Positions 12,875 to 62,133 of a DNA stretch of 64,000 bases are shown here, piece by piece; the stretch's first letter is position 1, and the number at the start of each line of letters is the position of its first letter. The translations under genes were made by a program, and so were the position numbers. Source of the stretch: Malacoraja senta (Eukaryota); NCBI GenBank assembly GCA_038087875.1, contig CM075989.1, forward strand, positions 8,558,001-8,622,000. Reading direction: 5' to 3'. The notes under the pieces are model-generated. The model saw only the letters and a program-made list of their open reading frames with translations, made no database searches and was not told the origin of the DNA.

Positions 12875-13210
12875 AGGGCCTGTCCCACTGTACGAGGTAA
12901 TTCAAGAGTTCTCCCGAGTTCTCTCCCGATTCGAGCTTGTGTAATGTACGTAGCGGGTACATAGCGGCTCGTACGAGTAAAAAGTAACCATTTTTTTCAT
13001 CACGAGTATTTTTTTACTCGTGGACATTTTTCGCAGTGTTCAAAAACACATCACGAGTTTACAGGATTTCCCGAGTACCTACCGTTACTCATACGAGCCG
13101 CTACGTGACATCCACGAACTCCTACGTACCCGCTACGTACATTACACGAGCTCGAATCAGGGGAGAACTCGGGAGAACTCTTGAATTACCCCGTACAGTG
13201 GGACAGGCCT
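12875..13210. mobile_element. Palindromic MITE, probably PIF/Harbinger type
   Basis: Near-perfect inverted arms of about 90 bp or more, starting AGGGCCTGTCCCACT and preceded by TAA. Confidence 0.8.
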
Positions 13211-13308
13211 GCTAGAGTTCTTCAAAAAAGTCTTACTGATTGCAAAACATTGTTTGGTGTTTTGGTGTCCGAGCAATATTTGCCGGTTGCTGTTTCGGAG
13301 CAACTTAC

Positions 13309-13462
13309 CAAAGTTGACAACATGTGCAGCAGCATGAACGATACCCAGTCCACAGATAGCAAATCCCACCAGCTGGTGCAGGAGCACGTGCTGGTCCAGA
13401 GGCAGCACCTTCACCACCCAGGTGGCTCTTAACCAGGTCAGACATCGGCGCAGCATCAGGAC
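13309..13462 (-). CDS. NOX5: NOX5 coding exon 5 (TM3, haem-ligating His pair)
   Basis: Translates VLMLRRCLTWLRATWVVKVLPLDQHVLLHQLVGFAICGLGIVHAAAHVVNF. Acceptor tcttgaag, donor G|gtaagt; 154 nt, phase 0 to 1. Confidence 0.96.
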
Positions 13463-16400
13463 CTTCAAGATGGAAAACCTTCAAACTATAATGTCATCTT
13501 AAATCTTTAGCAAACATAGTAACAAAAACAGAAATCAGTTCACACAAGTTCGCTCCAAGTCCATCGCTTTTTTTTTATACTGCACACTTCACCGAATAGT
13601 GGAAGGCCTGGATAGAGTTGATGTGGAGAGGATGCTTCCACTCGGGGGAGAGTCCAGGACCAGAGGTCATAGTCTCAGAATTAAAGGACGTTCCTTTAGG
13701 AAGGAGATGAGGAAGAATTTATTTCGTCAGAGGGTGGTGATACTGTGGAATTCATTGCCACAGAAGGTTGTGGAGGCTGTCGATGGATAATTTTAAGGCA
13801 GAGATAGATAGGTTCTTGCTTAGTACGGGTGTCAGGGGCTATGGGGAGAAGGCAAGAGAATGGGGTTGAGAGGGAAAGATAGATCAGCCATGATTGAATG
13901 GCGGAGTATGACTTGATGGGCCGAATGGCCTAATTTTGCTCCTTTCACTAATGAACTAATGAACTTATGCTTTTACTTCTCTTGGGTTCAGCTAAAATCA
14001 GTCATAAATGTAATATAGTTATAAATGAATCTGGGAATTGATAAGATCTTTACTGGGAGTGGTGGCACCTGCAATCACCAGGCTAGTTGTGCTGACTGGT
14101 ATTGTTGCAGGAACGAAAAACATGGTGACAGAGACGAGAGGGCATAACTTTAAGGTGAGAAGGGCAAGGTTTAAAGATGATGTGTGGGGCAAGTTTTTTT
14201 TACACAGAGAGTGGTGGGTGTTTGGAGTATGCTCTGATGGCTGGTGGTGAAGGCAGATATGATAGTGGCTATTCAAGAGGCCTTTGAATAGATACATGGA
14301 TATGCAGGGACTGGAGGAATAGGAATCATGTGTGCAGGCAGATGAGATTAGTATATCTTGGCCTCCTATTCGGTAAAGAATTTGAGGGCCAAAGGAACTG
14401 TTCCTGTGCTGTACAATGTTATGTTCTATGTTCTATAAATATATGATCTGATGGACAAAGAAACCAGTGGCCAATGGTCCATCTTCGGACTTTGAACAGT
14501 ATTGTGAATTTTCACCAGATTCAACATTTGGTGTCCTATATAGTCAGCGTATATTATTTTAATAAAGTATTTTACATTTCCAGCAGTCTGGATTGTGAAT
14601 AATGTTCAAAGCCAGCAGTCACAGCCATTCTCCAATGGTTCTCTTGAGTTGGCCGGGTGGGTCAGACGCTGCCCCATTGGAAGGGCAAATTCCTATCTAT
14701 ATTTGGTTTTACTCTTTGATGTTCCAGAGGTTCAAATGTGTTTTCAAAATAGTAAATTTCTTTAGCCTTGGAAACTGCCTTTCTTGAGCCACACCATTTC
14801 ATGTTCATTTCCCTTCTCATTTAGTTTAGTTTATAGATACAGCGCATAAACAGGCCCTTCGGCCCACCGAATCTGCACCAACCAGGAATCCCCACACATT
14901 AACATTATCCTTACATTTATACCGAACCCATTTAACCCACAAACCTGTACGTCTTTGGAGTGTGGGAGGAAACTGAAGATCTCGGAGAAAAGCTACGCAC
15001 GTCACAGGGAGAACGAACAATCTCCGTACAGACAACAGCCGTAGGTAGGATCAAACCCGGGTCTCTGGCGCTGTAAGGCGGCAACTCAACTCTACGCCGC
15101 AAATGTTCTCATATCATGAGAAAGTGTCATTTCACAGAATGAAATCACTTGGTCCATTGTGTGATATCCAATTAATGCTGCTCTCTTGCTGTTTCTCCAT
15201 AATCCTGTACATTGTGCCCCTTAAAGTGGTTTCTGAAAATTGCAGCTGATTTTCCCACTAACCTTTCATTGAGCATCGTACCAACTTCCTGTATCTAAAA
15301 AAAAACTTTATTTCTCCTCTGCTTTTATTGCCAATTAATTTTGTATTATTGTATATTTATTAGTCATGTTGTTGTGTTAATGTGCCTGTAAAAGGTGCTA
15401 CAAGTAAGAATGTCAGTGTTCCATTCCCAGTACATATGATAATTAAACACTCTTGACAATTACAGTAAGCTCCTTTAACCTGAGACACTCGGGACTTTTG
15501 GATGTTATCCTACAAAATACTTCTCATTCATTTTGATTTAGATGTTACATCGTCAAATATTTTTTTCAGTAAACCAAGTAAGTTTAAAGGAAACAGGATC
15601 CCAGTGAGTTTAACAGGAATACAGGAAACAGAACCAGGTGAGTTTCAAGCGAGCACAGGAACTGGGACCATGTGTGTTACGGGGAAACAAGGGCACTGAA
15701 GTCCCAATGAGACAGACAACAAAACATCAGGAGCTCTGGATGTGTAGGAAGGATTCTGCAGCTGCTGGTTTATACCAAAGGTAGATACAAAGTGCTGGAG
15801 CAACTCATCGGGTCAGGAAGCCTCTCTGGAGGAAAGGAACAGGTGATGTTTCAGGTCAGAACCTTTCTTCAGACTGGAGTTCTGAATAATCAGATGGTGG
15901 ATTTGTGAGTTTTACCTCCTTTTTAAACTACAAATTGTGACTCTCCCATCCTCCCATTCCAAGTGGAGATAAGAAGGTAAGTTGAGTCAATCACGGTTGT
16001 TATAGTTGGCTGAGACTGACTTTATGCACGTAATAATCATGCAACTATCCTTCACTCACTGCTCTCATTCTGGAGAATTAACCCTGTTTTTATGAGAAGA
16101 AATTGCTGCAGTTTCTGCTCTTCCAGTAGCCCTTGTTTTCTGATTAAATTGACTGTTTGTTGCAGAATAGACTACTTGTTGTGAGTTATGCACTCTGACC
16201 CTTCCCCACTTCACAGCCTGGCACAAAATTATCAAACTACAATATGTAATAAAAAGGAACTGCAGATGCTGGTTTATACCACTGATAGACACAAAATGCT
16301 GGAGTCACTCAGGGGGTCAGGCATCATCTCTGGAGAGAAGGGTCAGGACCCTTCTTCAGAATGATGATTGCTAAACTACACTTGGTCTCTTTAATCTGTG

Positions 16401-16494
16401 CCCTTTGCTTACCAACTCTCCTGCCGCAGAGAACAATAGAAATGCACCCTCAATCCTCCACAGCAGCAACATTGCAAATAACTAAATAGTTGTA

Positions 16495-16725
16495 TTGTTT
16501 CCTTCAATAAACTAGTTCACGGCACCCCTGCCATTGCGTACAGGACAACACTTTGTGTTTACATCCCGTAAACTATTTACTTTAGTTAGGTTTGTAAATG
16601 GGTGATAACTGATGATGTGTTACCATTAAGTAAATGAATAATATTCTTTGTTATGAAAACTGTGGTTTTACATTTACTTTTGATTATTTGTTAATAGAGT
16701 ACATTTTGAAATTAAAATAAGAGTT

Positions 16726-16774
<49 letters not shown>

Positions 16775-19316
16775 ATTTATTAGAAGTACATTACATCACA
16801 GCCACATACATTAATACTCGTCATTTATATCTTCTTACAATTAATGTACTCCCTTTATTTTTTTTTTACGCTAAAGAAAGAAAAGATTGAAAGAGAGAAG
16901 AAAGTGAAGGAAAAAGTGCAAGTGTAGAAAAGTGTAGAAAATGTAACAACAAAAAAAAAAAGGACGAGGACCCTATGAAAGCGAAATTAAAAACAAAAAA
17001 AAAAAGAGTTAAGAAATAGGCCCTAAGAAAAGAAAAGAGAGAGAGAAAAAAAAGAAAAACAAATGTTTTTTTTTTGAGCATCACGTAAATAGGACATACC
17101 AACTCTTCAACTATCATCCCCCCTTACCCGACCTCAATTTTTTATTTTTTTAAAGTACTTTTGCACCCTATGTTTGTAATAATTCTATAAATGCAGACCA
17201 CGTCAGGTGGAAGTGATCTGGTTTACCTGCTAGGAGGAGTCTTATCTCTTCAAGGTGTAGTGTTTCAAACATATTTGAAATCCACATATTTATAGTTGGT
17301 ATTGGAGCCTTCTTCCAAAATTTTAGAATTAGCTTTTTTCCAGTTATTAACCCATAATCCATTAATTTCTTTTGAAACACATTTAGTTCTGGATCATCTT
17401 CCGTTATTCCGAAGATAATCCATTCTGCTTTGGGTATCAGTCTTGTTTTAAATAACTTTGTAAAGATTTCAAAAATTTCATTCCAAAATTTTTGAATTTT
17501 TGTACAGAAGACAAATGAGTGCGCTATAGTTGCTTCTTGGGATTGACATTTATCACAAATAGATGATACGTTTGGGAAAATTTTATGAATTTTAGTTTTC
17601 GAATAATATAATCTATGTAAAATTTTAAATTGTATTAAAGTGTGTCTTACATTAATCGAGCATTTATGTACTTTTAATAAGTATTCATTCCAACTTTCCT
17701 TTGAAATTTTAATAGCTAACTCTTGTTCCCAGTCTCTTCTGATACCCTCCGTAGATGGTATTTGTACATTTAAGATAATATTGTACAAATATGATATTAA
17801 GTTTGCTGATTCCGCTTTTGTCTGCATTGCCTCGTCCAGTACATCTGCTGGGTTATTATGATGATCTTTTATATATTTTTTCAAATAGTCGCATATTTGA
17901 AAGTATTTAAAATATTGATTATTTCCGAGTTTATATTTTATTTGTAATTGTTGAAATGAAAGTAATTTTCCAGTTTCATACAAGTCACCAAGCGTTTTAA
18001 TTCCTAGTCTATCCCATTGTGTATAAGCTTTATCTATAATAGAAGGACTAAACGAAGGGTTATTGACTATAGGTAATAAAAGTGATAAGTTTCTTAATTT
18101 TAAATTTTGTTTTATTTGTTTCCAAATACGGATTGTACTATGAATAATTGGGTTCTTATTATAGTTTATGTTATTCAATTTCATTGGAGAGAGGAGGATC
18201 GCTCCAATGTTTCTAGAGGAGCAATCCTCTTTCTCCATTACAATCCAGTCTACTTGCTGGGCGGAGTTATCCATCAGTTGAATCATGTTTTTAATATTTA
18301 CTGACCAATAATAATACATAAAATTGGGTAGTGCTAGACCTCCCAATACTTTAGATTTATTCAGATGGGTTTTTTGTATTCTATGTGATTTATAGTCCCA
18401 TATAAAATTAGTGATATCTGAGTCGAGTTTTTTAAAAAACTTCTTAGGTAAGTATATAGGAATTGATTGAAATAGGTATAAAATTTGTGGTAAAAAGATC
18501 ATTTTTATTGCGTTTATTCGGCCTATTAAAGACATCGGAAGCGTTTTCCAGAATTTAATTAATGTATTCAGTTTATTAAGTAGGGGGTCAAAATTTGCCC
18601 TGAGCATACCTTGATATGCTCTGGTAATTTCGATTCCCAAATATTTAAATTTTTCTGTAGCTATTTTAAAAGGGAATTTTAAAAGATGTGTTGAATCTTT
18701 CGGTTTTATTGACATAATTTCACTTTTATTCCAATTTATTCTATATCCAGAAAAAGATCCGAAGTCTTCAATTAAATTTAATATATTTGGTATAGTGATT
18801 TGAGGTTTTGTAATATACAATAATATATCATCCGCGTATAAAGATATTTTATTATATGAGTCTTTAGTATTATATCCATGAATATCAGGGTGTATTCTAA
18901 TTTTTTCTGCTAGCGGTTCAATAATGAGAGCAAACAGCTGTGGTGATAATGAGCATCCTTGTCTATTTCCCCTTGATAGTTGAAATTTCGAGGATAATAT
19001 GTTATTAGTAAGTATTCTAGCTGTAGGTTTGTTATATAGTAACTTAATCCATAAAATAAAATTCTCTCCCAGTTGTTTCCTTCAATAAACTAGTTCACGG
19101 CACCCCTGCCATTGCGTACAGGACAACACTTTGTGTTTACATCCCGTAAACTATTTACTTTAGTTAGGTTTGTAAATGGGTGATAACTGATGATGTGTTA
19201 CCATTAAGTAAATGAATAATATTCTTTGTTATGAAAACTGTGGTTTTACATTTACTTTTGATTATTTGTTAATAGAGTACATTTTGAAATTAAAATAAGA
19301 GTTTTTTTTTTTTTTT
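16495..19316. repeat. ~231-bp direct duplication (16495-16725 = 19073-19303) flanking the L1
   Basis: The two copies read identical by eye at offset 2578. The right copy runs on into a T tract ending in TTTT/AA, an L1 endonuclease-type site. Confidence 0.93.
16727..19072 (-). mobile_element. 5'-truncated young L1-clade LINE (ORF2 RT C-terminal half, CCHC knuckle, 3'UTR, polyA)
   Basis: Frame is open from 19072 to 17168 and includes RGNRQGCSLSPQLF, YADD, FKYLG and CDKC...H....C. AATAAA is followed by about 40 A, and the element is flanked by a long direct duplication. Confidence 0.95.
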
Positions 19317-20056
19317 AAGCAGCATATTTGCTAGTACTTTGCTTCCAAACCTTGGTTCTTTTGCGGAAGTGAATTTAAATACCGGAGTTCAAGTGTGTCC
19401 TATATCATTGTCCATAAGGTTGGTCTCGTATACTGAAGGAAGATGTTCGTGCCATGGAGGGAAATGAGTTTATTAGACTGGTTTGCAGGGTGGCAAGACT
19501 GATGTACGAGCAGACATTGGGTTGATTAGGTCTGTATTCATTAAAGTTTAAAAGAATGAAAGGGGATCTGATATAAACGTATAAGACCGTACCAGTACTG
19601 GGCAGACTAGATACAAGGAGAATGCTCCTGATGATTGGGGAATCCAGAACCAAGCGCTACAGACACAGGGAATGCCGCTTAGAACTGAAATCAAGAGAAA
19701 CTTCTTCATCTGGAGAGTGGTGAACTTGTGAAATTCTCTACCACAGAAGACAGTGGAAGCCAAGTCACGAATAATATTCAAGTAATAAAAGGAATGAGGG
19801 AATTAAGGGGAGAGCACGAACCGTATTGAATTGAAGGATCATCCATGGTCATATTGAATGGTGGAATAGGCTTGAAGGGCTGAAAGGCCTTCTCCTGTTC
19901 CTATTTTCTGTGCTTTCAATTTGCACAGTTGTGTACCAATTTGAATGAGACTTTGAGCATCTAAGCCAACATGAAAATCCCCACAGTTTTTGTTTCCGCA
20001 ATGTAAAGTCACAGTGAAAAGCTTTACTTTGAATAGAAACACGTGCCATCACTCAC

Positions 20057-20294
20057 CACGATGAAGGTGCAATTGAAGTTAAGGCACTGACCACAGCCTT
20101 TTGCCAACATATACCATTCACTAAAGCTGCTGTGGTTCACTGCCGCAAATGCAAAAAGCAAGATGTTGACCAGAAGGTAGCAGCACATGAAGAGCAGCTT
20201 GCGGCTGTTATTGTGCCAGTAGGCTGGAGTCAGATAACGGGGGGGTTTTCTTGTGTATTTCTCCGCAATCGGTGGTTTTAACCAGTTGGCAGCG
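20057..20294 (-). CDS. NOX5: NOX5 coding exon 4 (polybasic region, TM1-TM2)
   Basis: Translates SAANWLKPP...YWHNNSRKLLF...AKGCGQCLNFNCTFIV. Acceptor ctcctctag, donor GTG|gtgagt; 238 nt, phase 2 to 0. Confidence 0.96.
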
Positions 20295-22239
20295 CTAGAG
20301 GAGATTGAACATATCACCAAGTTAGCTTCTGTTAGGACGTACTCACTGGAGATATCCTCAAGGGTATTATTAATCAGCCATAATCATCATTGCATTCAAT
20401 ATCTCACAGAGGGTTCTGCTAATCCCAATTAAATCGCTCAATCCACCCTTTGTTCCTCTACTTTTCCCACTGCCAACTTATTTTTGCTTTTTTTTTTTAA
20501 TTCGTTTTTTAGGATGCAAGAGTCACGGGGAAAACCTGCATATATTGCCCAATATTAAACGGAGCAACAGTCCAAATGGTAGAAATCAATCTGCAATAAA
20601 ATTGAAAGTAGTCCCTTTAATATCACTGGTTTGAAAGAGTGGTCAGAGAGTCACAAGGCACAGAAACAGCCCCTTCGGCCCAACTACTCCATGCCAACCA
20701 GTGGTGCGCGGTGGGGATGGAGGGATGTGTCTCCTTGTCCCCAAGCATTCAGAACAATGCATGAGTAAGTAGTGCCACTGGCTGGAGCTCCAAATTGGCT
20801 GTGCTGGCATCATTTCAGCACTACAGACTGATCAAGGTCAGCCCATATTTACAATGGGCATCAACTCACCCAGACTAATCCCCAAGAATATCCCACTAGT
20901 GGTAAATCACTCAACAAATATGAATTCTTCCTCTAGAAACTAACCGCACACACTTCTATTGCTGGTCCACAACACATGTGCTTTGAACCACAAAATGCCC
21001 CAGTAACAAATACAGAATTGATACCTCCAGGTCTGCTCTTTAAATAGTTATTTTAATGTTAGGCGTGACACATAGGCTATCTGATTTGAAAATCAGTTTT
21101 TAAATGTCTGCATTTAAAACTTCACAATTTCAGGATCAAATATCAGTTTGGCCTGTCCCACTTGGGCGTCATTTGCGCGTAATTTGCGCGACATCATTTA
21201 CGTGTCACGACGCACGACGCGCGCATTGTGACGCACACGTGATGCATGCATTACGCGCACATGGTGCGCGGTGCTGTAGGCAGTGACGCGCGGTCGCGCG
21301 CGGCGCCCCAGGATTTTGCGGTGTACAAAATCTTCGCGCGCCATCTGCGTGATGCGCAAATGACGCCCAAATGATGCCTTAACTCTACACGGCTCCACAT
21401 TAACCAACAAGAAGTCTCTGAATACACATAAGAGTGCAGGCCCTTCCTGTCAAAGACGTTTAAATATAATTAACTGTCAAAGTCAAACATAGCCTCTGGT
21501 TTACATTTAATTAATCAACCTATAGCAGAAGGCAATTAGAGATTGTGTATTCAAGGAGCAGCATGAAGCTCCTTAGCAAATTGCAATCAATCCTTCCTCC
21601 TTTCTGGTTTAATATGATGGTGAGGTTGGAGCACGATTCTGGTGGAACTGAGAGTGGATGCAATGAATTTACTACAAAAGGACAGAGTCAGTCGAGAAGG
21701 TAGCTGGCACAGCGGTACAGTTGCTGCTTTACAGCGCCAGAGACCCAGGTTCAATCCTGACTACAGCTTCTGTCTGTAGGGAGTTTGTAAGTTCTCCCCG
21801 TGACCTGCGTGGGTTTTCTCCGGGATCTCCGGTTTCCTCCCGCACTCCAAAGACATACAGGTTTGTAGGCTAATTGGCTTGGTAAAATTGTAAACTGTCT
21901 CTCGTGTGTGTAGGATAGCGTTAGTGTGCGGGAATCGCTGCTCGGCCTGAACTCGGTGGGCCGAAGACCCTGTTTCCATGGTGTATGTCTCAATTAAACT
22001 AAAGGGTCTGAGATGCAAGCCCAGTGCAGAGACAGGGATTCTCACGGAACTGTCACTTACAATGTGCTTGTTGTTCTTGTACTCAGGAGAGGAATAATTG
22101 ATCAATATTCCTGTGTCTGTGACCCTATGTGGGAATGATCTGGGGTTTGCTGCGTGACTTTCGGATATATAAGGAAACTGGAGCTTCTGGAGAAAACCTA
22201 CACAATGACAGGAGAATGTGCAGACTCCATTCAGAGTCC

Positions 22240-24153
22240 AGCAGAGGAGGACAAAGGGTTTAATTAGGAAAGGGAAAATAGATTATGAAAGAAAACTGGC
22301 AGGGAACATAAAAACGGACTGCAAAAGTTTTTATAGATATGTCAAGAGAAAAAGATTAGTCAAAACAAATGTAGGTCCCTTGCAGTTAGAAACAGGTGAA
22401 TTGATCATGGGGAACAAGGACATGGCAGACCAATTGAATAACTACTTTGGTTCTGTCTTCACTAAGGAAGACTTAATTAATCTGCCGGAAATAGCAGGGG
22501 ACCGGGGGTCAAATGAGATGGAGGAACTGAGTGAAATCCAGGTTAGCCAGGAAGTGGTGTTAGGTAAATTGAATGGATTAAACGCCGATAAATCCCCAGG
22601 GCCAGATAGGCTGCATCCCAGAGTACTTAAGGAAGTAGCCCCAGAAATAGTGGATGCATTCGTGATAATTTTTCAAAACTCTTTAGATTCTGGAGAAGTT
22701 CCTGATGATTGGAGGGTAGCTAATGTAACCCCACTTTTTAAAAAGGGAGGGAGAGAGAAAACGTGGAATTACAGACCAGTTAGTCTAACATCGGTAGTGG
22801 GGAAACTGCTAGAGTCAGTTATTAAAGATGGGATAGCAACACATTTGGAAAATGGTGAAATCATTGGACAAAGTCAGCATGGATTTATGAAAGGTAAATC
22901 ATGTCTGACGAATCTTATAGAATTTTTCGAGGATGTAACTAGTAGAGTAGATAAGGGAGAACCAGTGGATGTGTTATATCTGGACTTTCAGAAAGCTTTC
23001 GACAAGGTCCCACATAAGAGATTAATATAGTATAATTCAGTATTGATGTGGATATAGAACTGGCTGGCAGACAGGAAGCAAAGAGTAGGAGTAAACGGGT
23101 CCTTTTCAGAATGGCAGGCAGTGACTAGTGGGGTACCGCAAGGCTCAGTGTTGGGACCTCAGCTATTTACAATATATATTAATGATTTGGACGAGGGAAT
23201 TGAATGCAACATCTCCAAGTTTGCGGATGACACGAAGCTGGGGGGCAGTGTTAGCTGTGAGGAGGGTGCTAGGAGGCTGCAAGATGACTTGGATAGGCTG
23301 GGTGAGTGGGCAAATGTATGGCAGATGCAGTATAATGTGGATAAATGTGAGGTTATCCACTTTGGTGGCAAAAACAGGAAAGTAGACTATTACCTGAATG
23401 GTGGCCGATTAGGAAAAGGGGAGATGCAACGAGACCTGGGTGTCATGGTACACCAGTCATTGAAAGTGGGCATGCAGGTGCAGCAGGCAGTGAAGAAAGC
23501 GAATGCTATGTTAGTATTCATAGCAAAAGGATTTGAGTATAGGAGCAGGGAGGTTCTACTGCAGTTGTACAGGGTCTTGGTGAGACCACACCTGGAGTAT
23601 TGTGTACAATTTTGGTCTCCTAATCTGAGGAAGGACATTCTTGCCATAGAGGGAGCACAGAGAAGGTTCACCAGACTGATTCCTGGGATGTCAGGACTTT
23701 CATATGAGGAAAGACTGGATAGACTCGGCTTGTACTCGCTGGAATTTAGAAGACTGAGGGGGGATCTTATAGAAACTTACAAAATTCTTAAGGGGTTGGA
23801 CAGGCTAGATGCAGGAAGATTGTTCCCAATGTTGGGGGAGTCCAGAACAAGGGGTCACAGTTTAAGGATAAAGGGGAAATCTTTTAGGACTGAGATGAGA
23901 AGAACATTTTTTACACAGAGAGTGGTGAATCTCTGGAATTCTCTGCCACAGAATGTAGTTGGGGCCAGTTCATTGGCTATATTTAAGAGGAAGTTAGATG
24001 TGGCCCTTGTGGCTAAAGGGATCAGGGGGTATGGAGAGAAGGCAGGTACGGGATACTGAGTTGGTTGATCAGCCATGATCATATTGAATGGCGGTGCAGG
24101 CTCGAAGGGCCGAATGGCCTACTCCTGCACCTATTTTCTATGTTTCTATGTTT
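22240..24153 (+). mobile_element. 5'-truncated CR1 LINE (RT ORF2, disrupted near 23030)
   Basis: Motifs KSPGPD, NYRPVSLTS, YLDFQKAFDKV, GVPQGSVLGP, FADD and RTRGH; 3' tail (tttctatg)n. Confidence 0.95.
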
Positions 24154-25057
24154 CCATAAGACAACACTGGAAATCAGGATTGAACCCTCGTTTTGGAGTA
24201 GGAGATTGTTGCACTACCTGTAGTTTCACTACACTGATCATAATGCAATTGAAAAAAATGGTGCTCAGTATCCACAAACAAATGTCACCAGGATAGATGA
24301 TCATCTGCCTCTTACTATTTGTGGCAAAATCTGAACCCTGTGTTAGTCACAGTGTGGGTTTCCATATTTCCTTATGACATAGGGTACTATTTTGGGGTAT
24401 TGAGTCTTAGCCAACTGAGTGAGCAATCCCACTCCTCACTAGTTTTCCCCATCACAAATTCTCTTCACATTGGCATCAACTCTCTCTCCCCAACTACACG
24501 TTCGAGGAAATTTACAACTGCCAATTAATCTGCAAACTCATTGTCTTTGAGATTTGGGAGGAAACTGGAGCACTCTAGTTCAATTCAGACGGTCACAGGG
24601 ACAACGTGCAAACTTCACGCCAAGAGCACCCAAGGTCAGGATTATCCCCAGGTCAGGGGTTCAGACGTTCAATGGCTCTTTATTTTCACGTATGCACAGC
24701 ACCGTGAAATTCTTTTGCACAACCACAAATGCACAGTTGCCATATTTTGGCACCATTTGCAAAGGAAAAGAAACAGTCAAAAGTCCAACCTCCTGTCCAC
24801 ATGTTTGAAGTACAGGACGCCCCCTATCCATGTAAGCCCAGGTAGGCCCCAGGCTGCTAAAGGGCCGCGGTTAGGGGTTGGATGCAAGTTTAAGTTCCTT
24901 CTTTTCTCCCCAATAATGAACAAAACATGAAGCCAAACCAATCAACTTGATCTGTTGCTTTTATCAAATGTATCAAGCGAAATGAAAAATGTTGTTCCAG
25001 TCAATTTTGTCACAGCCAAGAGCGGGCTAAGAACTGGATTCGTTTCAAACCGATTAC

Positions 25058-25268
25058 CTGATTGTTAAGTTCTCCATTACTTCTGGAAAGTTTTCTAGCT
25101 CCTCCTTAAGCTCCTCAAATGTAATGGTGCCACTGTTGTCTTTATCAGCAGATTCAAAGAGCACCAGAGTGAGGTCATCCAACTTCTCCTCCGGCAACGA
25201 TATGGCACTTTCCCGCAAGCAGGATTTGAGGACCGTGCGCAGCTCATCAGGGTCAATGGAGCCGCTGC
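25058..25268 (-). CDS. NOX5: NOX5 coding exon 3 (EF-hands 3-4)
   Basis: Translates GSGSIDPDELRTVLKSCLRESAISLPEEKLDDLTLVLFESADKDNSGTITFEELKEELENFPEVMENLTI. Acceptor aaccacag, donor AG|gtaatc; 211 nt, phase 1 to 2. Confidence 0.96.
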
Positions 25269-26146
25269 CTGTGGTTAGATTCAATGTCAACACTGGTAAA
25301 CTGTGGCTATCTTGATTAGAACAGAGAGTTGCAGCATGGCTTAACATGGATGGTAAGAAAGAGAGACCAAAGGGTTCAATTGCTGTCAGGCGTTAACTAG
25401 AGAAAATAATGTCTTTCTTATTTTCAAATCCTTCGATGGCCTCCAACGTGCGTCTTATTTGTGACCTCCTCCAACCTCCAAGGGCACGCCGCACCTCCAA
25501 TTAGAGTCATACAGCATGGAAACAGGCCCTTCAGCCCAACATGCCAACCAAGATGCCCCATCTACACTAGTTCCACCTGCCTGCGTTTGGCCCATGTTCC
25601 TCTAAACCTTCCCTCTCCATGTACCTGTCCAATCCTCGCAATCACTTTCCAGAAATAACTTTGCTGCACTTCTGACCATTGTGACAAAATATTCCTGGGC
25701 CCTTAGATCTGAAACTATTTCTCCAAATCTTTCCTTAAAAACTTATATTTTTCCGATTAAGTGTTTGTTGTAACAGCTCTTTGGATAGTTCAGTGTCACA
25801 TTTCAATTGATTCCACTTCTGTGCGTTTGATCCAAATTGTAAACGATTTAGAACAGAAAAGCAGAAGGGAGTGCACTATTGGAGGTTCTGATCAAAGCCG
25901 AAATCATGCCAATATTGTGGAATATATTACATACAAGAGTTATAAAAAGATAGAGAAGAAGGGAGGTGCATGAGATGAAGACTGGTGCTAGTAAATGAAT
26001 TGCTGGGTCAAATGCTGTGCTGTAACCTTGTACTTTCCACATGATTTTAGAAAAAAACAAGTAAGATTATGGGGAGAAATTCATCTTTATTCATCAGCAT
26101 CCAAGGTGAGTGTAGCAATTGGCAGCTGATGATACGCCTGATGTAG

Positions 26147-26454
26147 GGTCGGCATGGTGGCGCAGCGCTAGAGTTGCTGCCTTACAGCACCAGAGAACCG
26201 GGTTCGATCCTGGACTACGGATATTGTCTGTACGGAGTTTGTACGTTCTCCCCGTGACCTGCATGGGTTTTCGCCAAGATCTTCGGTTTCCTCCCACACT
26301 CCAAAGACGTACAGGTTTGTAGGTTAATTGGCTTGGTATAAATGTAAATTGTCCCTAGTATGTGCAGGGTAGTGTTACTGTGTGGGGATCGCTGATCGGT
26401 GCGGACTTGGTGGGCCGAAGGGCCTGTTTCCGAGCTATATCTCTGAACTAAACT
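26147..26454 (+). mobile_element. tRNA-derived V-SINE (HE1-like), near full length
   Basis: Head ggcatggtggcgcagcg...ggttcgatcc; body matches the 6023 copy. Confidence 0.85.
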
Positions 26455-27156
26455 ACCCCTGAGCATTCTACCCTTTGAAGGTGACAAAGATGAGTGTGTG
26501 GAGCAGCTGAACCAGCCAACAGTGTGTATTCACATATCTAGTGCTGACGTTCAAAGACTAATATCACCCTCTAATTTTGCAAAGATGGGGGTATTGAGCC
26601 TTTGCAATCTGAGGGAGCAATCTCACTCCTCACTCCCTGCAACAGATTCTCTCCACATTAGCATCAACTCTGTTGAGACGAAGGAGATCTTTAGGTTCCT
26701 CAAATCTTCATTTTGGTAGGTCCTGTCTGAAGGCCAATCCCCAACTCAATACCTTTGTGTCTGGAGAAGTATTGACCACAGCCGTGTACACACACATTGA
26801 CTGAGCATTGGCAACCTTCTGGCCTAAAGAATTCCAAAAATTCCAAACCCTCTAAATGAAGATATTTCTCCTCAGAGCTGTCCTAAGTGGCCAATCTATG
26901 AAGTGTGTTTCCAGTTCTCAACTCTCCAGGTACAGGAACTAATATTCAACGTTTACCCTGAGAATCAACATCAGATTTACAGCTCAATGAGATCACTTTT
27001 CATTATTCTATAAAGTAGAGGACAACGTTTCTTCAGTCCTGAGTGTGGCATTAGAGTAATGATTATAATTTTATCAGAAGACATAGGAGCAGAATTATGC
27101 CATTCAGCGCATCAGGTCAGCTCCACAAGGGTACGTCATGAAGTAAAGATTATTAC

Positions 27157-27307
27157 CATCGACATCATAGACTTGGAAGAGGAAGTGTAGCTTGTCTGTT
27201 TCACTCCCGTGCGTGAGGAGATTTAGAGCCTTCAGCAATTCATCCAGGCTTATGCTGCCACTCCCATCAGAGTCAAACAGAGCAAAAAACCTTTCTGCAA
27301 AGAAGGA
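27157..27307 (-). CDS. NOX5: NOX5 coding exon 2 (EF-hand 2, start of EF-hand 3)
   Basis: Translates SFFAERFFALFDSDGSGSISLDELLKALNLLTHGSETDKLHFLFQVYDVD. Acceptor tattttgccag, donor G|gtaata; 151 nt, phase 0 to 1. Confidence 0.96.
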
Positions 27308-29152
27308 CTGGCAAAATAGACAAAGAAACAAAAATAAAATTAAGCCTTCCTGGAATCAATAGCACAAATCCCAGCCCATCCTGCAATCACAGTAAAGTCG
27401 CAACATGTCCTCATTGATATATTCTAGACCCTATCTCCTCATTACAATTTTATTTCAGGTAACATTTGTTTCTTTATCCAATCACTTAGTTCTGTGTCCT
27501 CTGGTTCTTGACACTTGGGAAACATTACTCTTTCTGTTGTCGGGCCCTTCATAGCAGATGCATCAGATCTTTGAAAGGACTATTTAATTAGATTCTTTCA
27601 CCTCTTCATTGTCCAAAGCATTACAAACCCTTACATTTCAATTTCTTAACCATGTCCCTTTTTAAGGTTATGTTTTAATCTGCCTCCAGTAACCTTTTCT
27701 GGAATGGTATTACTGGTCTTAACAATGACGATAGCTGGTCAGAACTTTCCTGGTCCGAACAACATTCTCCATTAAAAGGCATACTCGTGTTTCTCTCTCG
27801 TTCTTGATTTTGAAATATTACCCTTTGTATAATTTAAGTGTTAGGAAACAGATTGAAGTCGAAGCTTCAGTGCAAAATTTGAGCGTGCAATGGAAGATTT
27901 GAAAAGAGTGCAGGGGAAAGGGAACAATAAGGAGAGTAAGAATTGGAATCTCCAGCAAGAACACAGAAACAGTGTTGATGACGAGATAATGATTATCCTG
28001 GCTGGGATCAGTGGACTCAGGACTTCAACAGGAAAGAAGACTTACTTTGCTTATTGAACTATCTAAGAGGAATTCAACTGGGGTATTAAACATTGTAACC
28101 ATGCCCATTGGTTGGATGACACCTCTTTGGATCCATGTGTGGGCAGATGTGTCCTAATCTTCAACACAAAGGGCTGGAGTAACTCAGCGAGTCAGGCAGC
28201 ATCTCTGGTGAAAAAGGATGGGCGACGTTTCGGATCATAACCCTTCCTGATCTTTATTGGTTTGATATGATGATCTATCAATACAAACATCAACAGTTTT
28301 ACCCTGGCGCACTGTCAAAATAACCAGGTAACTTCAGCTCCGACCAAGTCCAGATCATGTGGTAGAGTTGAATGGGGGTAGGGGGTGGGGAAGGAGGCAC
28401 ATTAGAATTGAGTATTAGTAAGGGGTTGGGTCTTGTTTAGCTCAATGAGTAAGTGGGTTGGGGGCAGGTTGTAGCAGGAAGTTGATAGTCAAGTTTGTAG
28501 TGGGGGGGGGGGGCATGGATAGGGCTAGTGATTGTAAAGGCAGAAGGGATCTTATTGGGGAGGGTGATGGCTCTATGTGAAGTTTAAGGGGGTTAGGCTA
28601 CAGATAGGCAAATGTGAGGGGAAGCCAAGCAAAGGTTCTGCTGGTAGATGGATGTGCGGAAGGGGAGGTTTGTCCAAATGAGAGCCGTCATGACGGGTCA
28701 GTACATATCCAAGAGTTGCTGGTCCCCAATGCTGGAGTTGTCAACCTGCGGCTCCCACAGGTAGGGTCTCTAGTGATATCAAAGCAGTTTGCAAAGATTT
28801 TATATCAAGTTTTATAAAAGCGTCTGCATGAGTGGCCACCCTGTCTGTGATTCAAAATCATAATGGTTGCATTCAAATGTTTCTAATTCAGATGCTACTA
28901 TTTATCTCTGTGATCCTCAACATTTGAACATAAAAGAGAGTCCACATTTTACCTTTGCGCTTATTTTCGTTTAAGTTAAATCACACAGCACATAAAAACA
29001 TGGCGTGTGGCAATCTGATTGCCCGCCTACAGTGGTTGTTCACAGGAAAGATATTGCACTTATTCCAGTTTAACTCTAACAAGCTGAGATGACTGAGGTA
29101 TGAAATGGCAGCGGATGTGAAATACTCTCTTAGTGCATGAATTAATGCTTGC

Positions 29153-29266
29153 CTCTTTCACTTTGAGAGCTGTCTTGAATTCTTTCAAATCAATCTCCTT
29201 ATCCTCGCCGGCGATATTTTCGAACTGTTTAGTTACCCACTCCAACCATTTGGCATCATCATCCAT
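29153..29266 (-). CDS. NOX5: NOX5 coding exon 1 (ATG, EF-hand 1)
   Basis: Translates MDDDAKWLEWVTKQFENIAGEDKEIDLKEFKTALKVKE (38 codons). Acceptor ttttgcctgttacag ends at 29277, 10 nt before the ATG. Donor GAG|gcaagc is phase 0 and joins SFFAERFF of the next exon. Confidence 0.93.
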
Positions 29267-38963: not shown

Positions 38964-39568
38964 AAGTCAAGTCAACTTTATTTGTCACATACACATACAA
39001 GATGTACAGTGAAATGAAAGTGGCAATGCCTGCGGGAATGAGCAAAACAACAGAACAGCACCAGTATTTACATTAAAATAAAGACACAACAGTAATTACT
39101 GCCCAGTGAGATCAGTTTACAGTCCTGATGGCCTGTGGGAAGAAACTCCGTCTCATCCTCTGTTTTCACAGCGTGACAGCGGAGACGCTTGCCTGACCAT
39201 AGCAGCTGGAACAGTCCGTTGCTGGGGTGGTAGGGGTCCTTCATGATCTTGCTGGCTTTGGATCTGCACCTCCTGGTGTATAGGTCCTGCAGGGGGGAGT
39301 GTAGTTCCCGTGGTGCGTTTGGACGAACGCACTACTCCCTGCAGAGCCTTCCTGTCCTGGGCAGAGCTGTTGCCAAACCAGATCGAGATGTTTCCAGACA
39401 GGATGCTTTCTACAGCACCAGAGTAGAAGGATTGAAGGATCCTCGGAGACACTCTGAATTTTCTCAGCTGCCTGAGGTGGTAAAGGCACTGCCTTGCCTT
39501 ACTCACCAGTGCGGCAGTGTGTGTTGTCCATGTCAGATCCTCTGCGATGTGGACTCCCAGGTATTTTA
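38964..39568 (-). mobile_element. Rex1/Babar-type LINE 3' fragment
   Basis: Translates KARQCLYHLRQLRKF...FYSGAVESILSGNISIWFGNSS..DRKALQ; (ttgac)n tail. Older copies at ~700-1180, 36460-36915, 47370-47770 and 62740-63320 (+). Confidence 0.8.
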
Positions 39569-42500
39569 AGTTCCTTTCTCTTGATATTTATTGAGAGTAT
39601 GCCGCTTGAAACCAGAGCTAATCCCAAACCCTTAGTGACCAATCATTCTGTAAAACTTATCACATTCTCGGTTGACACCAAATTTACACACAGTGAAGAA
39701 AGAGAACTTGTTCATGATGTAATTGAAACATAGGGCAAAATAAATTTATAACACAGCAGCAGCCATTCCGCTGTTCTTATGAGTGCTAATCATAAATGCA
39801 CAAACCAGCCTTATCTTACAAATATCCCTTCATCTGTATGTTCAATTACTTCTTAAATATGATGAAGGTTTCTGCCCCTCACATCCATTTCACATTGTTC
39901 CCCTTCGGATGTGCAGTCAATGCCAAGACTCGGGGAGGAGGGGGGAGGGGTGACCAGGACATGGGTGACGTTTACGGGTCGAGACCCTTCTTCAGACTGA
40001 AGTCCGTCAACGGTCTAAAGATGGGTCTCGACCCGAAACGTCAGCCATTCCATCTAAACAGAGATGCTGTCTGTCTCGCTGAGTTACTCCAGCATCTGCA
40101 GTTCCTTCCTGCACACAGTCTAGGGTCCTTCCGCTGCCGGACACTGAGGGGCAGGGTCCCTCAAACAAGGGATGGGATATCACCCTGGGGGCCACATGAG
40201 TGGCAAGAGTACTTGGTATAAGGATAGTTTGCAAATGCTACCGAATATAACACTAATAGATGTACAGACTGTGAGGATTTTGGAAGAGATTTGGCACTGT
40301 TCTTGTTTTGTGTATATTTTTTATTCTGATTAAAGTTTGGGGGTTTTTACAAAAAAGACGCTCTTTCCTCAACTTTTCCAACTCCTCCTGTAAATAACGA
40401 TGCCTGCATGAAACAAAGCATTTTGGACTGCAAAGAATCTCTCCCTCATTGCTTTTAACCACAACTGAACTTAAAATCAAATAGCAAGTGACATCAGAAA
40501 AGTCACGCCATCTCTTTATAACTGAAGGAATTAAGACAAGAAAATCTCTGTGCAGCATAACTCATGGTCATTCATCAGTGAAACTGGCATGTTATCAAAT
40601 AACAGTGAAAGAGAAGGCAAGGGTTCTGTGGAATTCTCCACAATAGGAATATCTGGGAATTGTTTGGTCTTTCGGAATTTCATGTGTAAAGCCAGTAGAG
40701 GTGTGAAGCCCCAAATTCCTGATCTTGGCGTGTCATGATCTCAAACACTAGGTGTAGGGAGTAATCGTGAGCTCTGGACAAGTGAAATGCTTTGGGCTTT
40801 CCAGTTCCGATAAAGTGGTTACGGCCAGAAATCTTAGTTCTGTTTATCATCCCACAGATGTGGACTGACCTGCTGAGTATTTTCAGCAGTTTCTGTTTTT
40901 ATTTGACTTTCCCTTCCTGGTTACTACTATTCATGGATATCTAGAGGGAAATATAACTAGGCTTGACTCCCTATTAGCCTCTGAATAGCCTGCAGGGTTA
41001 TTGTCCTATCCAAGTTGCCCAATGTTCAATAGTTCGATGAGTAAGGAGACAGAAGCCTTTCAACATTTGTGTAGCCAAATTGCCAACATGAGCTTTTATT
41101 GCCCAACAAAAGAATAACAGATGGTGGAGCCAGACACCTGGATTTGATCCAGACCTTGAGGGCTGTCTATGTGGAGTTTGCACATTCTCCCTGTGATCAC
41201 ATCGTTTTTTTCTGGGTGCTCCAGTTTCCTCCCACATCCCAAAAGATGTGCAGGTCTGTAGATTAACTGGCCACTGTAAATTGTCCCTTATGTGGATGGG
41301 AAGTGGGATAACGGAGATCCGTGTTCGATCCCAACTACGGGTGCTGTCTGTACAGAGTTTGTACGTTCTCCCTATGACTGTGTGGGTTTTCTCCGAGATC
41401 CTCTCGGTTTCCTCTCACACTCCAAAGACGTACAGGTGTGTAGGTTAATTGGCTTTGTATAAGTGTCAATTGTCTCCAGTGTGGATAGTGCTAATGTGCA
41501 GGGATCGCTGGTCGGTGCGGACTCGGTGGGCCGAAGGGCCTGTTTCCGCACTGTATCTCTAAACTAAACTGGAGTCGAAGGGCCTCTTAACTCTATACTA
41601 TAATTCTAAACAAAAACTAAATGGGAAGCTAAACATATCTTTAACAGAGCTAGAACTAAACTCGGAATGACCCACTGCATACAAATCAAAGCAACAAAAA
41701 AAAGAGGTTCCTCTGTAGATAATGATATTGATGAAATGACTTGGATATCTGCAAATTAAATATATATATTTACATTACGTTAAAAAGATAAAAGGACCAG
41801 GTTTACCTGTCATTGTTCCCGTTCATGTCAGTAGAGCTGTGATAAACATCCAAGCCATCTTGCAAGTGATCTTTTTCCTGTTACCTTTCTGTCCTTTATA
41901 CAAGTAGAATTATCCAAGTAAACATTACCCCGTTCTGGTTTGTGAATTTGGTAGTACAGAATGTTCACAAGTTATGTGCCTGCTTTGATTTGAGCCGTTT
42001 ATGATTGCTCATCCCCCGATTAAAGGATTTTTGAGTGGTTCATCCGGAGGCATATGCTGCTGACAACCTATACTCAAGTTACACCTTTCAAGTGGTTCAA
42101 TTTTCAGATAACAAGATGTTGCTTTCAGCATTGATTCCGTCCACGAATCTTAATGTTGGGTACAAATAAAACTCAAATACGTATTAATCGTGTGCTTAAA
42201 AAACAAAAATGATATTAAATGATTCTTAAATGCCCAATTCAACTACAAAGTAAGTGAGTACCAAAAAAAATAAGGAAATATATCCAGTATCCAAATTCAG
42301 GCAATTCTATTAGATGTACAATTTTAAAGTGTCTTTAATATTCACATTGTCTCCTAAGGCCACGATTCATAGTTTATCAGGAACAGGTGGTTCTGATAGC
42401 CCATTCTCACTTATACCTTTCAAGAGCCCCTTGAAGAGATTGCAATATATAATGCATTTCGCAACCACAACATTTTACAACCACTTTAGTACTTTTGCAG

Positions 42501-45157
42501 CTGTCAGCCAAGAGGCATGGCAACAAATCATTGCACAGCGATGTAGTAACAGTAGATCATCTATTTTAGTGATGCTTTTGTAAGGATAAATGATGACCAG
42601 GACACTGGGGAGCTCTCTCCTGATCTTCCTGCAATATAAAATAAAGGGTGCCTGGGGACTGAAGACAGTGGAGTATATGTGGAAGACAGAGTACAACATG
42701 CTCATGTGAATATACAGCACAATTGGCACCAACATTTGTAACAAAAACTCTTTGTATCCAATTGAGAGGACAGACAGAGCCTTGGTTTATTGTCTGGTCT
42801 TATAGATACAGCGTTGTACAGCATGGACGCACTCACAGACTTTGTTTTGAATATCAAGCACTCGTTAGTTTACCCTAATCCCAGTTTAAAACTCTACCCA
42901 CACTCCCATCAATCTCCCTCCACGTACCACCACTTATCTAAACACTGTGCTCATTTACAGCAAACATTAAACTAATGTGGAGGCAACCAGATAACTGAGG
43001 GAACCCACAGTCATAGGGTAATCGTGCAAATCACACAGAGACAGCAGCTCTGGAGGCAAGGATCGTAACCAGGTTACTACAACTGTGAGGTACCCTTGCT
43101 GCCAGCTGCTTTACCACACTGCAGCACCTACTTCATGTGTGGTTAGATCTCAGGAGTGGGATTTGGAGCCGAGAGCATAGATACTAAAATACTCAGTGTA
43201 ATTTAGTAAATGCCACCATCAAGAGGCAATGATTTAAATTGAAATCACTTGTTGAACCAACTATTGTGAGAAGAAATTGAGGCTGTTTAACACCAGCAAG
43301 CAAGGATGAATGACCATTTTCTGCTGCCCATTCATTTCATTGGGCAACAATTTAATTTCTTGAATCTTGAGTCTGAAGAAGGGTCTCGACCCAAAACATC
43401 GCCCATTCCTTCTCTCCAGAGATACTCAGGCATTTTGTGTCTGTCTTTGGTTTAAACCAGCATCTGCAGTTCCTTCCTACACAATTTAATTTCCCTATCT
43501 AGGTTCCACATACCTTGAGCTGATGCCCTATGGTTAATTGAACCCCACAATCCCACCAACCCCTCCCCACTCTGACATTGTGATCCTAGATGAAATTAGA
43601 ACTTCCCCCTAAACAGGGGAGTTCAGATTAGCAATGCCTGGGGCAACTCATGAAAGTACTGCCTCAACAAAAGACTGAGAGTAAATAGTGGCTGCCACAT
43701 CCAACAACACAGAAATGTTCTGAGAAGAGGTGAAGTGAAAATATGACACCTATACTCATTCATCACTCCTCCAACACCCTACCTTTCCTCCACTGCAGCT
43801 AGAAATGATACATGTTAGAGAGCAGTCAAGCTACTGTACCTCCCTGGAGGCCCTCCGACTATCTTTAATTGGAAATTATTTTAAAAATATTTTTCTCTCT
43901 CTTTCCCCTTATCTAAACCGTAAAACTATTTTATCTTCAAGTTTTCCCATTCTGATGAAATGTCAATTCTGGTTTGGTTTTCTTTATCCACAAATGCTGC
44001 CTGATCTGCTGGGTATTTCTAGATTTTTTTCTGTTTCCAATTTTAAATTACAGAAATGGCTTATAAACATCGTAAAGAATTATTTGGAAATATAGTCTTA
44101 GGAAATGGAAAATGGAAATCCTTGGTAGACAAAAATGCTGGAGAAACTCAGCGGGTGAGGCAGCATCTATGGAGCGAAGGAAATAGGCAACGTTTCCGGT
44201 CGAAACCCTTCAGACAGTTTCAAATTGTTTCAAAAGTCTTCTTCAGATAGTTTGAAGAAGGGTCTCGACCTGAAACGTTGCCTACTCCCTTCGCTCCATA
44301 GATGCTGCCTCACCCGCTGAGTTTCTCCAGCATTTTTGTCTACCTTCGATTTTCCAGCATCTGCAGTTCCTTCTTAAACAAAACAGAAATTCTTGACAGC
44401 TTCTAGCACAATATAGAAACAAGGAACTGAAGATGCTGGTTTACAAAAGAAGACACAGATGCTGAAATAACTCAGCAGGTCAGGCAGAATGCCTGGAGAA
44501 CATAGAGAAGTGAAGAAGGGTCCCGACCCAAAACGTCACCTATCCATGTTCTCTAGGAATGCTGCTTGACCTACTGAGTTACTCCAGCACTTTGTGTCCT
44601 TTTTTCTGGCACAGTATTTTCATAGTTGAATCAGAAATTTGCAATTAAAGTAATCTGTGCTTGAAATTCCACAATTATTTGCCCGCTCTTCCCTTATTCC
44701 ATGTGCTGGAAAAACCAGCACATTTAGCAGGGCTTGTATTCCACGGCCTGTCAACGGAAATAGCTGGCTGTCAAATGTAAGTCATCCCCTTTTAATTACC
44801 TTCATAACCTTCTTTTAGTTGTGGCAATATGTTTCAAACAAATACAACAAATATGATGTCCAACCAGAATTTTAATGCTTTAGCTTAATATTTTAATTTA
44901 ATTATTCAGACATGATAGAAAATGTTTCAAACGTATTCTATTTTGACAGGTTATGTGGCTATATATATATAATAGGCTGTGTGTGGGGTGTGTTTTTGTG
45001 TGTATTTATATATACTGTATTAAACTTTAAAGTACATTTAAACTATTATTGCTTTCAAGTGGCGATTACTTTCTTTTGAAAGTACCTCCTGCATTGCCAA
45101 AGCCTATTGCAGACAGCTCCAATTGTTTAATTTGAAACTCTCTGAATGCTGCTCTCC

Positions 45158-46272
45158 TCAGTTCGATCCAACTCTTGGTCCATGTGGGATCAATTCCACA
45201 TTAGATAGTATTCCTGCAAAGTCTCTCAAAGCTTCCAGTTCAAAGTCTATATAAGAGTTTCTCCCTTTTAGCCATGGGATCTGTTCCAACTGAGTAACCA
45301 CACTGAGCGAATGATCGAGGAGACGTTCCACCATGTCGAGCTTCTCCCCAGTCTTGTAATCTTCCAAAAATATCTTCAGATTGGAAAGGTTTTCTTCCAG
45401 CTGATAAAACATTTGGACGTAGTGATTTAATTGGTCGGCATCTTCCCATTCAGATTCTGCCATGGACAATTCTTTGTCCTCAAAGGAATATTTGTCTGGT
45501 TCAGCATTGTTATCGTTGGGGGACGAGTTTCCGGACAGTTGGCCATTGAGATCCTTTAGTACAGTGCTGCTGAGGTTAAGGATCCGAAGCAAAATGTGTT
45601 CGCTCATCTGAAGTTCTTTCTTTCTGTTGTCTGCAAATTCCTTTGGTGCTGTCGCCACCATTTTATTAAGTTTTTCCATAAGCACTGAGAGCCTGTGCTC
45701 GTGTCCATCCACAGAGGCTGCAGACATTATTTCCGCTGTCTTATTAGCTAATAACTGGTTCTGCAAATAATAATTAATCTCTTCTGCCATCTGGGTAGGC
45801 GAATCAATGGGTTCAGGTTCTCCCTTGGCCGTAATGTTTTTAGGTACACTTTCCGTTACAGCTTTGACTGTAACACTGACATTATTATTAGCCTGTGATG
45901 TGTTAACAATATCCAAAACCCCAACAAGAACAAGCCTTTCATTTGTGGACTTGGTCTCTTTGCCCGAGGATTCTTTTATAGTGACTTTCTGCGGAAGGTG
46001 GTGAAGTAAGGACTTTCCGTTGACTATTTTTAGAATGCTTCCATTTAGATATATTTTTTGCAATATGCTGTTGATTTTGGATGGCTTCTTCAGGTTGTTT
46101 TCTTGTGCTTTATAATTCTGTGTGTCGTGGGTTACTGCACTGGTGGTGTTTAACTCCTCGACATTTTTCATGGGAATGGCCTTCACTAAATTGACAAAAG
46201 TCTTGAACTGCTTTGGCGTAAGTTCTAATACTTCACTTTGATTCTGTGCGGCATCATTTGGCAAAGTATGAT
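45158..46272 (-). CDS. Large terminal exon of a putative secreted glycoprotein, SPESP1 (sperm equatorial segment protein 1)-like
   Basis: 1115-nt non-repetitive open frame after acceptor catatttctgccag (phase 1), with a TGA stop and ATTAAA at 45131-45126. It has 10 N-x-S/T sequons. Motifs NLVKAIP, NNVS..EPEP and ILLRILNLSSTV resemble human SPESP1, and it lies upstream of NOX5 on the same strand, as SPESP1 does in human. Confidence 0.75.
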
Positions 46273-61254: not shown

Positions 61255-62133
61255 GTGTTAAAGAAGGAACTGCAGATGCTGGAAAATCGAAGGTACACAA
61301 AAATGCTGGAGAAACTCAGCGGGTGCAGCAGCATCTATGGAGCGAAGGAAATAGGTAACGTTTCGGGCCGAAACCCTTCTTCAGACTGATAGGGGGTGGG
61401 GAGAAGAAAGGAAAAAAGGAAAAGGCGGAGGAGGAGCCCGAGGGCTGGGGGAGGGGAGGAGACAACCAGATGGCTGATGAAGGGGAGGGGACAGCCAGGG
61501 CTAGCAGAATTGGGAGAATTCAATGTTCAGGCCACCAGGATGTAGACTGCCCAAGCGGAATATGAGGTGCATTTCCTCCAATTTACGGTGTTGCTCGCTG
61601 TGGCCATGGAGGAGACCCAGGACAGAGAGGTCAGATACGGAATGGGAGGGGGAGTTGAAGTGCTGAGCCACCGGGAGTTCAGGTTGGTTATTGCGGACCG
61701 ACCGGAGGTGTTCGGCGAAACGATCGCCAAGCCTCCGCTTGGTCTCACCGATGTAGATCAGCTGGCATCTAGAGCAGCGAATGCAATAGATGAGGTTGGA
61801 GGAGATGCAGGTGAACCTCTGTCGCACCTGGAACGACTGCTTGGGTCCTTGAATGGAGTGGAGGGGGGATGTGAAGGGACAAGTGTTGCATCTCTTGCGG
61901 CTGCTCTAGATGCCAGCTGATCTACATCGGTGAGACCAAGCGGAGGCTTGGCGATCATTTCGCCGAACACCTCCGGTCGGTCCGCAATAACCTCCTCCGC
62001 CTTTTCCTTTTTTCCTTTCTTCTCCCCACCCCCTATCAGTCTGAAGAAGGGTTTCGGCCCGAAACGTTACCTATTTCCTTCGCTCCATAGATGCTGCTGC
62101 ACCCGCTGAGTTTCTCCAGCATTTTTGTGTACC
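61255..62133 (-). mobile_element. Penelope-like element fragment with GIY-YIG endonuclease and inverted pseudo-LTR
   Basis: ORF 61501-61827 reads LIYCIRCSRCQLIYIGETKRRLGDRFAEH. Segment 61901-62133 is an inverted copy of two internal parts. TSD tataaactatctat at 61241-61254 and 62134-62147. Confidence 0.9.
62041..62070 (+). ncRNA. Minimal hammerhead ribozyme core in a Penelope pseudo-LTR
   Basis: Reads CTGAAGA a GGGT-TTCG-GCCC GAAA CGTT. Stem III is palindromic (dimer-type) and stem I is weak. Confidence 0.6.

Follow-up and report, generated by a model that had tools for sequence, protein, structure and literature searches.

Is the long exon that lies upstream of NOX5 in Malacoraja senta the skate counterpart of mammalian SPESP1? 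The question was raised by the initial annotation of the window (the whole 64,000-nucleotide stretch analysed here), in which this exon was called a probable SPESP1 orthologue. Human SPESP1 has two exons, a signal-peptide exon and one large exon. Its knockout and its role in sperm-egg fusion are treated in passages of PMC5320423 and PMC11673484, its equatorial staining in a passage of PMC9540887, and its O-glycosylation and dimerisation in part of PMC11920050, while the section of PMC12127192 consulted gives N128, S123 and S130 as glycosites of the human protein. The horse gene is a pseudogene according to the part of PMC3434135 available, whose sample holds no shark by word count. Chondrichthyans have acrosomes and retain acrosin, as stated in the passages of PMC13762310 that were accessible, in which SPESP1 is not mentioned. 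SPESP1 in cartilaginous fish is not reported in the literature searched (subscription journals lie mostly outside its scope), it is absent from the shark literature among the matches listed, and six of the chondrichthyan locus identifiers given below are named nowhere in the searched literature.

Exon structure of the skate gene

The frame of the terminal exon (exon C, Table 1) is open from stop to stop for 394 codons, and the canonical AG acceptor that sets its start leaves 370 residues after the split codon. The encoded segment is free of cysteine, has no stretch of transmembrane strength (19-residue hydropathy maximum 0.87) and contains 10 N-X-S/T sequons, against 4.5 ± 1.9 expected (10,000 shuffles, P = 0.008). 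Frame, acceptor and sequon count thus bear out the terminal exon of about 370 codons with a phase-1 acceptor and 10 sequons that had been annotated. The elasmobranch proteins carry seven to 10 sequons each (20/20 proteins), and the one at residue 10 of exon C is retained in all 10 elasmobranch rows of the alignment.

Table 1. Positions of the features mapped in the 64,000-nucleotide window.
Feature	Position	Strand	Description
Exon A (small, coding)	63462-63416	-	47 nt, phase 1 to 0, AG/GT ends; RLRSRR
GIY-YIG frame	61501-62066		Lies within the A-B intron, beside a partly repeated neighbour; presumably Penelope-like
Exon B (small, coding)	50095-50023	-	73 nt, phase 0 to 1, AG/GT ends; conserved FEMALLHAI segment
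Exon C (terminal, coding)	46272-45158	-	1115 nt including the stop at 45158; phase-1 acceptor; 370 codons plus stop
Conserved half, residues about 151-370	45161..45820	-	Two predicted three-helix bundles and an acidic linker
Most conserved stretch of the family, residues about 327-356	45161-45290	-	Q-x-x-x-I-x-W-L ... D-F-x-x-E-x-L
Candidate polyadenylation signals	44796..45131	-	Four ATTAAA hexamers past the exon C stop
Frame matching Pfam ALKBH8_N	39153-39587	-	Between the exon C gene and NOX5; taken by us to be likely a LINE tail fragment and no gene
NOX5 (part mapped)	13157..29266	-	EF-hand exons ~27.1-27.3 and ~25.1-25.3 kb; first transmembrane exons ~20.0-20.4 and 13.2-13.5 kb
Two adjacent RVT_1 frames	22209-24059	+	One LINE copy, antisense in a NOX5 intron; presumably CR1-like
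LINE reverse-transcriptase frame	17168-19081	-	637 codons, RVT_1 and zf-RVT; within a NOX5 intron

The two-exon layout implied by the initial annotation fails, as two further coding exons, A and B, lie upstream of exon C in the window. Exon B was located by tblastn with the stored proteins P0002, P0010, P0015 and P0005; the skate RefSeq models begin at a methionine within it, and both are without a signal peptide. The tblastn match of exon A is weak by itself (catshark P0019, E = 0.028), and the exon is backed by its splice sites and frame. Its RLRSRR segment forms a furin-type R-X-R-R site. When joined, exons A, B and C give 411 codons with no internal stop, which align with the N-termini of the long stingray and catshark isoforms. 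The B-C junction is also present in two Logan records of related skates, on contigs 1334 and 1631 bases long; because the B-C intron measures 3.75 kb here, we infer that these contigs derive from spliced RNA.

The furin-type site recurs as RSKR in both stingray X1 isoforms (P0015, P0016) and as RSRR in catshark X1 (P0019), and these are the only three of the 21 stored proteins that extend N-terminally to such a site. The stingray X1 isoforms start with 16 moderately hydrophobic residues (11-residue hydropathy maximum 1.75), followed by RSKR; judged from hydropathy, a signal-like start of this kind is found in 2 of the 21. No exon matching it was found within the 64-kb window, so that the signal exon probably lies past base 64000; counting this predicted one outside the window, the exons number four or more. 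Taken together, secretion and furin cleavage appear very probable from these features, and the product is likely a secreted glycoprotein. A second isoform, in which an alternative first exon is joined to exon B without signal and furin site, occurs in the stingrays Hemitrygon (P0003) and Hypanus (P0004); kept in two species, it is a possible non-secreted form.

Relatives, rate and conserved regions

The first protein search returned eight matches among 2807 candidates, all from elasmobranchs, with the best at 91% to Amblyraja radiata. Cluster look-ups added Leucoraja, two stingrays, Heptranchias, the whale shark, two bamboo sharks and two catsharks, and all of these relatives are annotated as "uncharacterized" or "hypothetical". 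A profile search of 1.84 billion representatives gave four matches at E 0.001, all chondrichthyan, and newly recovered LOC103173254 of the chimaera Callorhinchus milii (110 bits), which brings the family to 11 named cartilaginous fish species. No relative outside Chondrichthyes was found among these representatives (no coelacanth, lungfish, sturgeon, amphibian or reptile), with a family profile that is shallow (11 rows) and therefore of limited sensitivity. Word-limited searches matched eight of 8000 and one of 588 candidates, none outside Chondrichthyes, the single match being the query itself, which marks the tool as blunt for such a family; a metagenome scan gave 333 pattern matches, of which none was confirmed.

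The same gene is found at LOC116991635 of Amblyraja and LOC129712749 of Leucoraja (91% identity to the exon C protein), at LOC132382367 of Hypanus, LOC125486823 of Rhincodon, LOC122540812 of Chiloscyllium and LOC119974644 of Scyliorhinus (39-52% for these rays and sharks), and at the Callorhinchus locus (34% over 213 columns). All seven RefSeq/GenBank loci are unnamed and without a Pfam family, and the exons for the signal and the furin site are missing from most of their models. The gene of exon C is real and conserved in cartilaginous fish. Each species group has a single cluster, and a midpoint-rooted tree of 12 proteins (P0003/4, P0008/9, P0011-14 and P0018 excluded as isoforms or near copies) follows the species tree: skates pair with stingrays and catsharks with carpet sharks, and the chimaera falls outside. 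The rate is high, with skate and stingray separated by about 0.9 changes per column and the chimaera branch carrying 2.5; fast evolution is common to many reproductive proteins. Single elasmobranch proteins score the chimaera protein at 50-83 bits, which means that the family is still detectable across the elasmobranch-chimaera split. The gene had been proposed to date to the jawed-vertebrate ancestor; sequence comparison supports an age of at least the shark-chimaera split, and no relative was found outside Chondrichthyes for the older date.

Conservation is uneven along the protein. Identity of the non-skate proteins to skate exon C is 12-47% over the variable first 150 residues and 40-67% over residues 271-360. 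The most conserved motif of the family, at residues of about 327-356, is invariant from skate to chimaera and is matched by no library family. The AlphaFold2 model of the full-length protein is unusable (pLDDT 35), and that of the conserved half has a mean pLDDT of 54. With the latter, Foldseek gave no match at E 0.001, and the best VIA-align hits (Z up to 9.2 over 73 residues) are to MIT-type, syntaxin-like and other generic bundles, which we discount as below the meaningful level for helical bundles. An internal repeat of the two bundles was ruled out (hhalign 10.5 versus a shuffled mean of 10.6, n = 60, with the reversed control higher), a short resemblance between the N-terminal region and the first bundle is unconvincing (probability 15%), and two weak matches to C9orf78 in the variable region from a PDB sequence search (E = 0.007) were attributed to composition.

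Comparison with SPESP1 and the NOX5 neighbourhood

NOX5 lies downstream on the same strand, where two of its exons match human NOX5 (6sz5_B) with E-values of 1e-32 and 2e-19. We take its start codon to be likely at ~29266, in an exon located with a sequence pattern and without a database match of its own, which gives 15.9 kb from the exon C stop to the putative NOX5 start and agrees with the annotated position 16 kb upstream of NOX5. In human, SPESP1 and NOX5 start from a common site on the same strand of chromosome 15, as described in the relevant part of PMC2568002, and the adjacency given in the initial annotation is correct in this respect. In the little skate, the searched parts of supplement file 2 of PMC10115646 place Itga11 (15.66 Mb), Coro2b (15.72 Mb) and Anp32a-2 (15.91 Mb) on Leri_33C, with Kif23 on the other side at 14.14 Mb; those parts hold no row for NOX5 or for this gene, and neither does the searched part of the PMC12318234 supplement. 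The linkage to NOX5 was observed in this one genome, with the ANP32A side falling outside the window. The order of Itga11, Coro2b and Anp32a-2 in Leri_33C is presumably that of human.

Like mammalian SPESP1 (PF15754; human Q6UW49), the skate gene is situated just upstream of NOX5 on the same strand, has a similar length, and has a large last exon; a signal exon precedes it in SPESP1 and is predicted in skate. SPESP1 is a glycoprotein, and the skate protein is predicted to be one from its sequon enrichment. The skate gene departs from SPESP1 in its two additional exons, its furin-type site, its sequon number of about ten and its cysteine-free exon C, and its sequence has no detectable similarity. 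Exons A and B together comprise 120 nt (47 + 73) and are entered and left in phase 1, so that their single loss would leave the signal exon joined to the large exon, as in the SPESP1 layout.

Profile similarity to SPESP1, whose absence the initial annotation had listed first among the results that would refute it, came out blank. The PF15754 model (322 positions, cut-off 27 bits), scanned up to E = 10, matched none of 17 full proteins and none of 17 fragments. The scan covered 17 of the 21 stored proteins, the other four being near-identical Logan copies, and most matches above about 0.1 are removed by the HMMER filters. The family profile likewise retrieved neither mammalian SPESP1 nor a bridging bony-vertebrate protein from the 1.84 billion representatives. 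Such negative results count for little in a family that changes this rapidly (see the chimaera branch above), and a faster mammalian lineage could drop below detection. That no coelacanth, lungfish, sturgeon or amphibian matched counts somewhat against the gene being an ancient orthologue.

The colinear motif matches to human SPESP1, on which the annotation had relied, are at chance level. Its six segments reach a BLOSUM62 sum of 116 (summed by hand); the best chain of six segments with matching lengths attains this value in 597 of 600 shuffled homologues (mean 129) and scores 131-140 in reversed proteins (6/6). The motif chain was dropped as uninformative evidence, though homology itself may still hold. 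Among the 10 alignment rows, EPEP is present in only one and NNV-x-VTV is confined to the two skates. Two of the human motifs quoted in the annotation are genuine human sequence, as seen in portions of PMC8253266 and of the PMC12127192 supplement. Human SPESP1 peptide 31-49, taken from the portion of PMC8253266 available, fits the family profile best at skate residues 279-297 (score 24.9, reached by 11 of 1000 shuffles), and the site chosen in the annotation ranks third with 18.3, where the shuffle maximum averages 16.3. The match at 279-297 is a lead only, since the site had been noticed beforehand and is out of order, with the human N-terminus falling on the C-terminal half of the skate protein. 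Human C-terminal SPESP1 peptides are absent from the glycopeptide table of PMC12127192 as far as it was covered, which makes that table uninformative here.

Origin of the gene and what it means

At a probability of about 0.5, we favor the reading that the exon C gene is a diverged counterpart of mammalian SPESP1, with a product that would be a secreted, furin-trimmed, N-glycosylated helical protein serving as a sperm-acrosome scaffold. The signal peptide (present in two stingray isoforms only) would route the protein into the secretory pathway, where a furin-like enzyme would cleave after R-X-[KR]-R and release a short pro-piece. The variable N-terminal half may act as a glycosylated spacer and the conserved helical half may self-associate or bind partners, comparable to the dimerisation reported for SPESP1, and the protein would serve as a scaffold in the acrosome in the manner of SPESP1. 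The two-exon gene of mammals would have arisen by in-frame loss of the 120-nt pair of exons. The proposed orthology and sperm role derive solely from where the gene lies and how it is built. What stands of the "probable SPESP1 orthologue" is thus the position, the strand, the large phase-1 terminal exon and the likely secreted glycoprotein; the sequence matches at chance level, the blank PF15754 scan and the extra exons with their furin-type site speak against it. Because no profile match was obtained and the exon layout differs, the gene is not filed as a member of SPESP1, and we regard it as a positional SPESP1 candidate whose orthology has about even odds. The fuller history, to which we give slightly less than an even chance, would have SPESP1 predate mammals, with this gene as its shark orthologue, the SPESP1-NOX5 pair inherited from the jawed-vertebrate ancestor, and an ancestral pro-protein processed by furin, from which mammals removed both exons of the pro-region together as a single in-frame unit.

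A serious possibility, albeit one that we would bet against, is an unrelated gene restricted to chondrichthyans that sits upstream of NOX5 by chance and encodes a pro-protein that is secreted and cleaved at its furin-type site, resembling a granule-matrix protein or hormone precursor. All four homology searches end at Chondrichthyes without a SPESP1 profile match or any bridging sequence from slow-evolving bony vertebrates, and the differing exon count and conserved furin-type site fit such a gene. Granin-type and other furin-processed secretory pro-proteins have a signal start and an R-X-[KR]-R site and are cysteine-free, partly acidic and helical. The skate protein is similar in these respects, with a signal-like start in its stingray relatives, but it differs in having no Pfam match, no series of conserved dibasic sites and one furin-type site only; no granin or hormone Pfam family was matched, and an internal KK pair is lost in the chimaera. 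Moreover, chance placement requires the independent origin, in the same interval and orientation, of another gene for a secreted glycoprotein whose last exon is 1.1 kb long and in phase 1, and the fast rate again weakens the argument from blank searches.

It is improbable that the product is intracellular, starting at a methionine in exon B or exon C as in most automatic models, with incidental sequons and a cytoplasmic helical half. The rarity of the signal-like start (2/21) and its modest hydropathy, the window's lack of a signal exon and the generic MIT-like and syntaxin-like structure matches would be in line with this, but exon A has clean splice sites and a kept frame, the furin-type motif occurs in skate, two stingrays and catshark, and the sequons are enriched, with the residue-10 sequon kept in every elasmobranch row. 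A chance or repeat-derived frame, suggested by the several retroelement frames of similar length in the window, is refuted by intact relatives in 11 species (25-91% identity, unevenly conserved), by the spliced B-C form in the Logan records and by the absence of a retroelement domain from exon C.

If the gene is not orthologous to SPESP1, cartilaginous fish from chimaeras to skates nevertheless retain an unnamed, single-copy gene for a likely secreted protein, and its model is corrected here. If the favored SPESP1 reading holds, a protein that aids sperm-egg fusion, and whose study has been almost confined to mammals, would go back to the root of the jawed vertebrates, beside acrosin (as treated in the accessible passages of PMC13762310). 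The conserved helical half with its invariant C-terminal motif would then be the functional core, and loss of the gene would be predicted in the acrosome-less teleosts.
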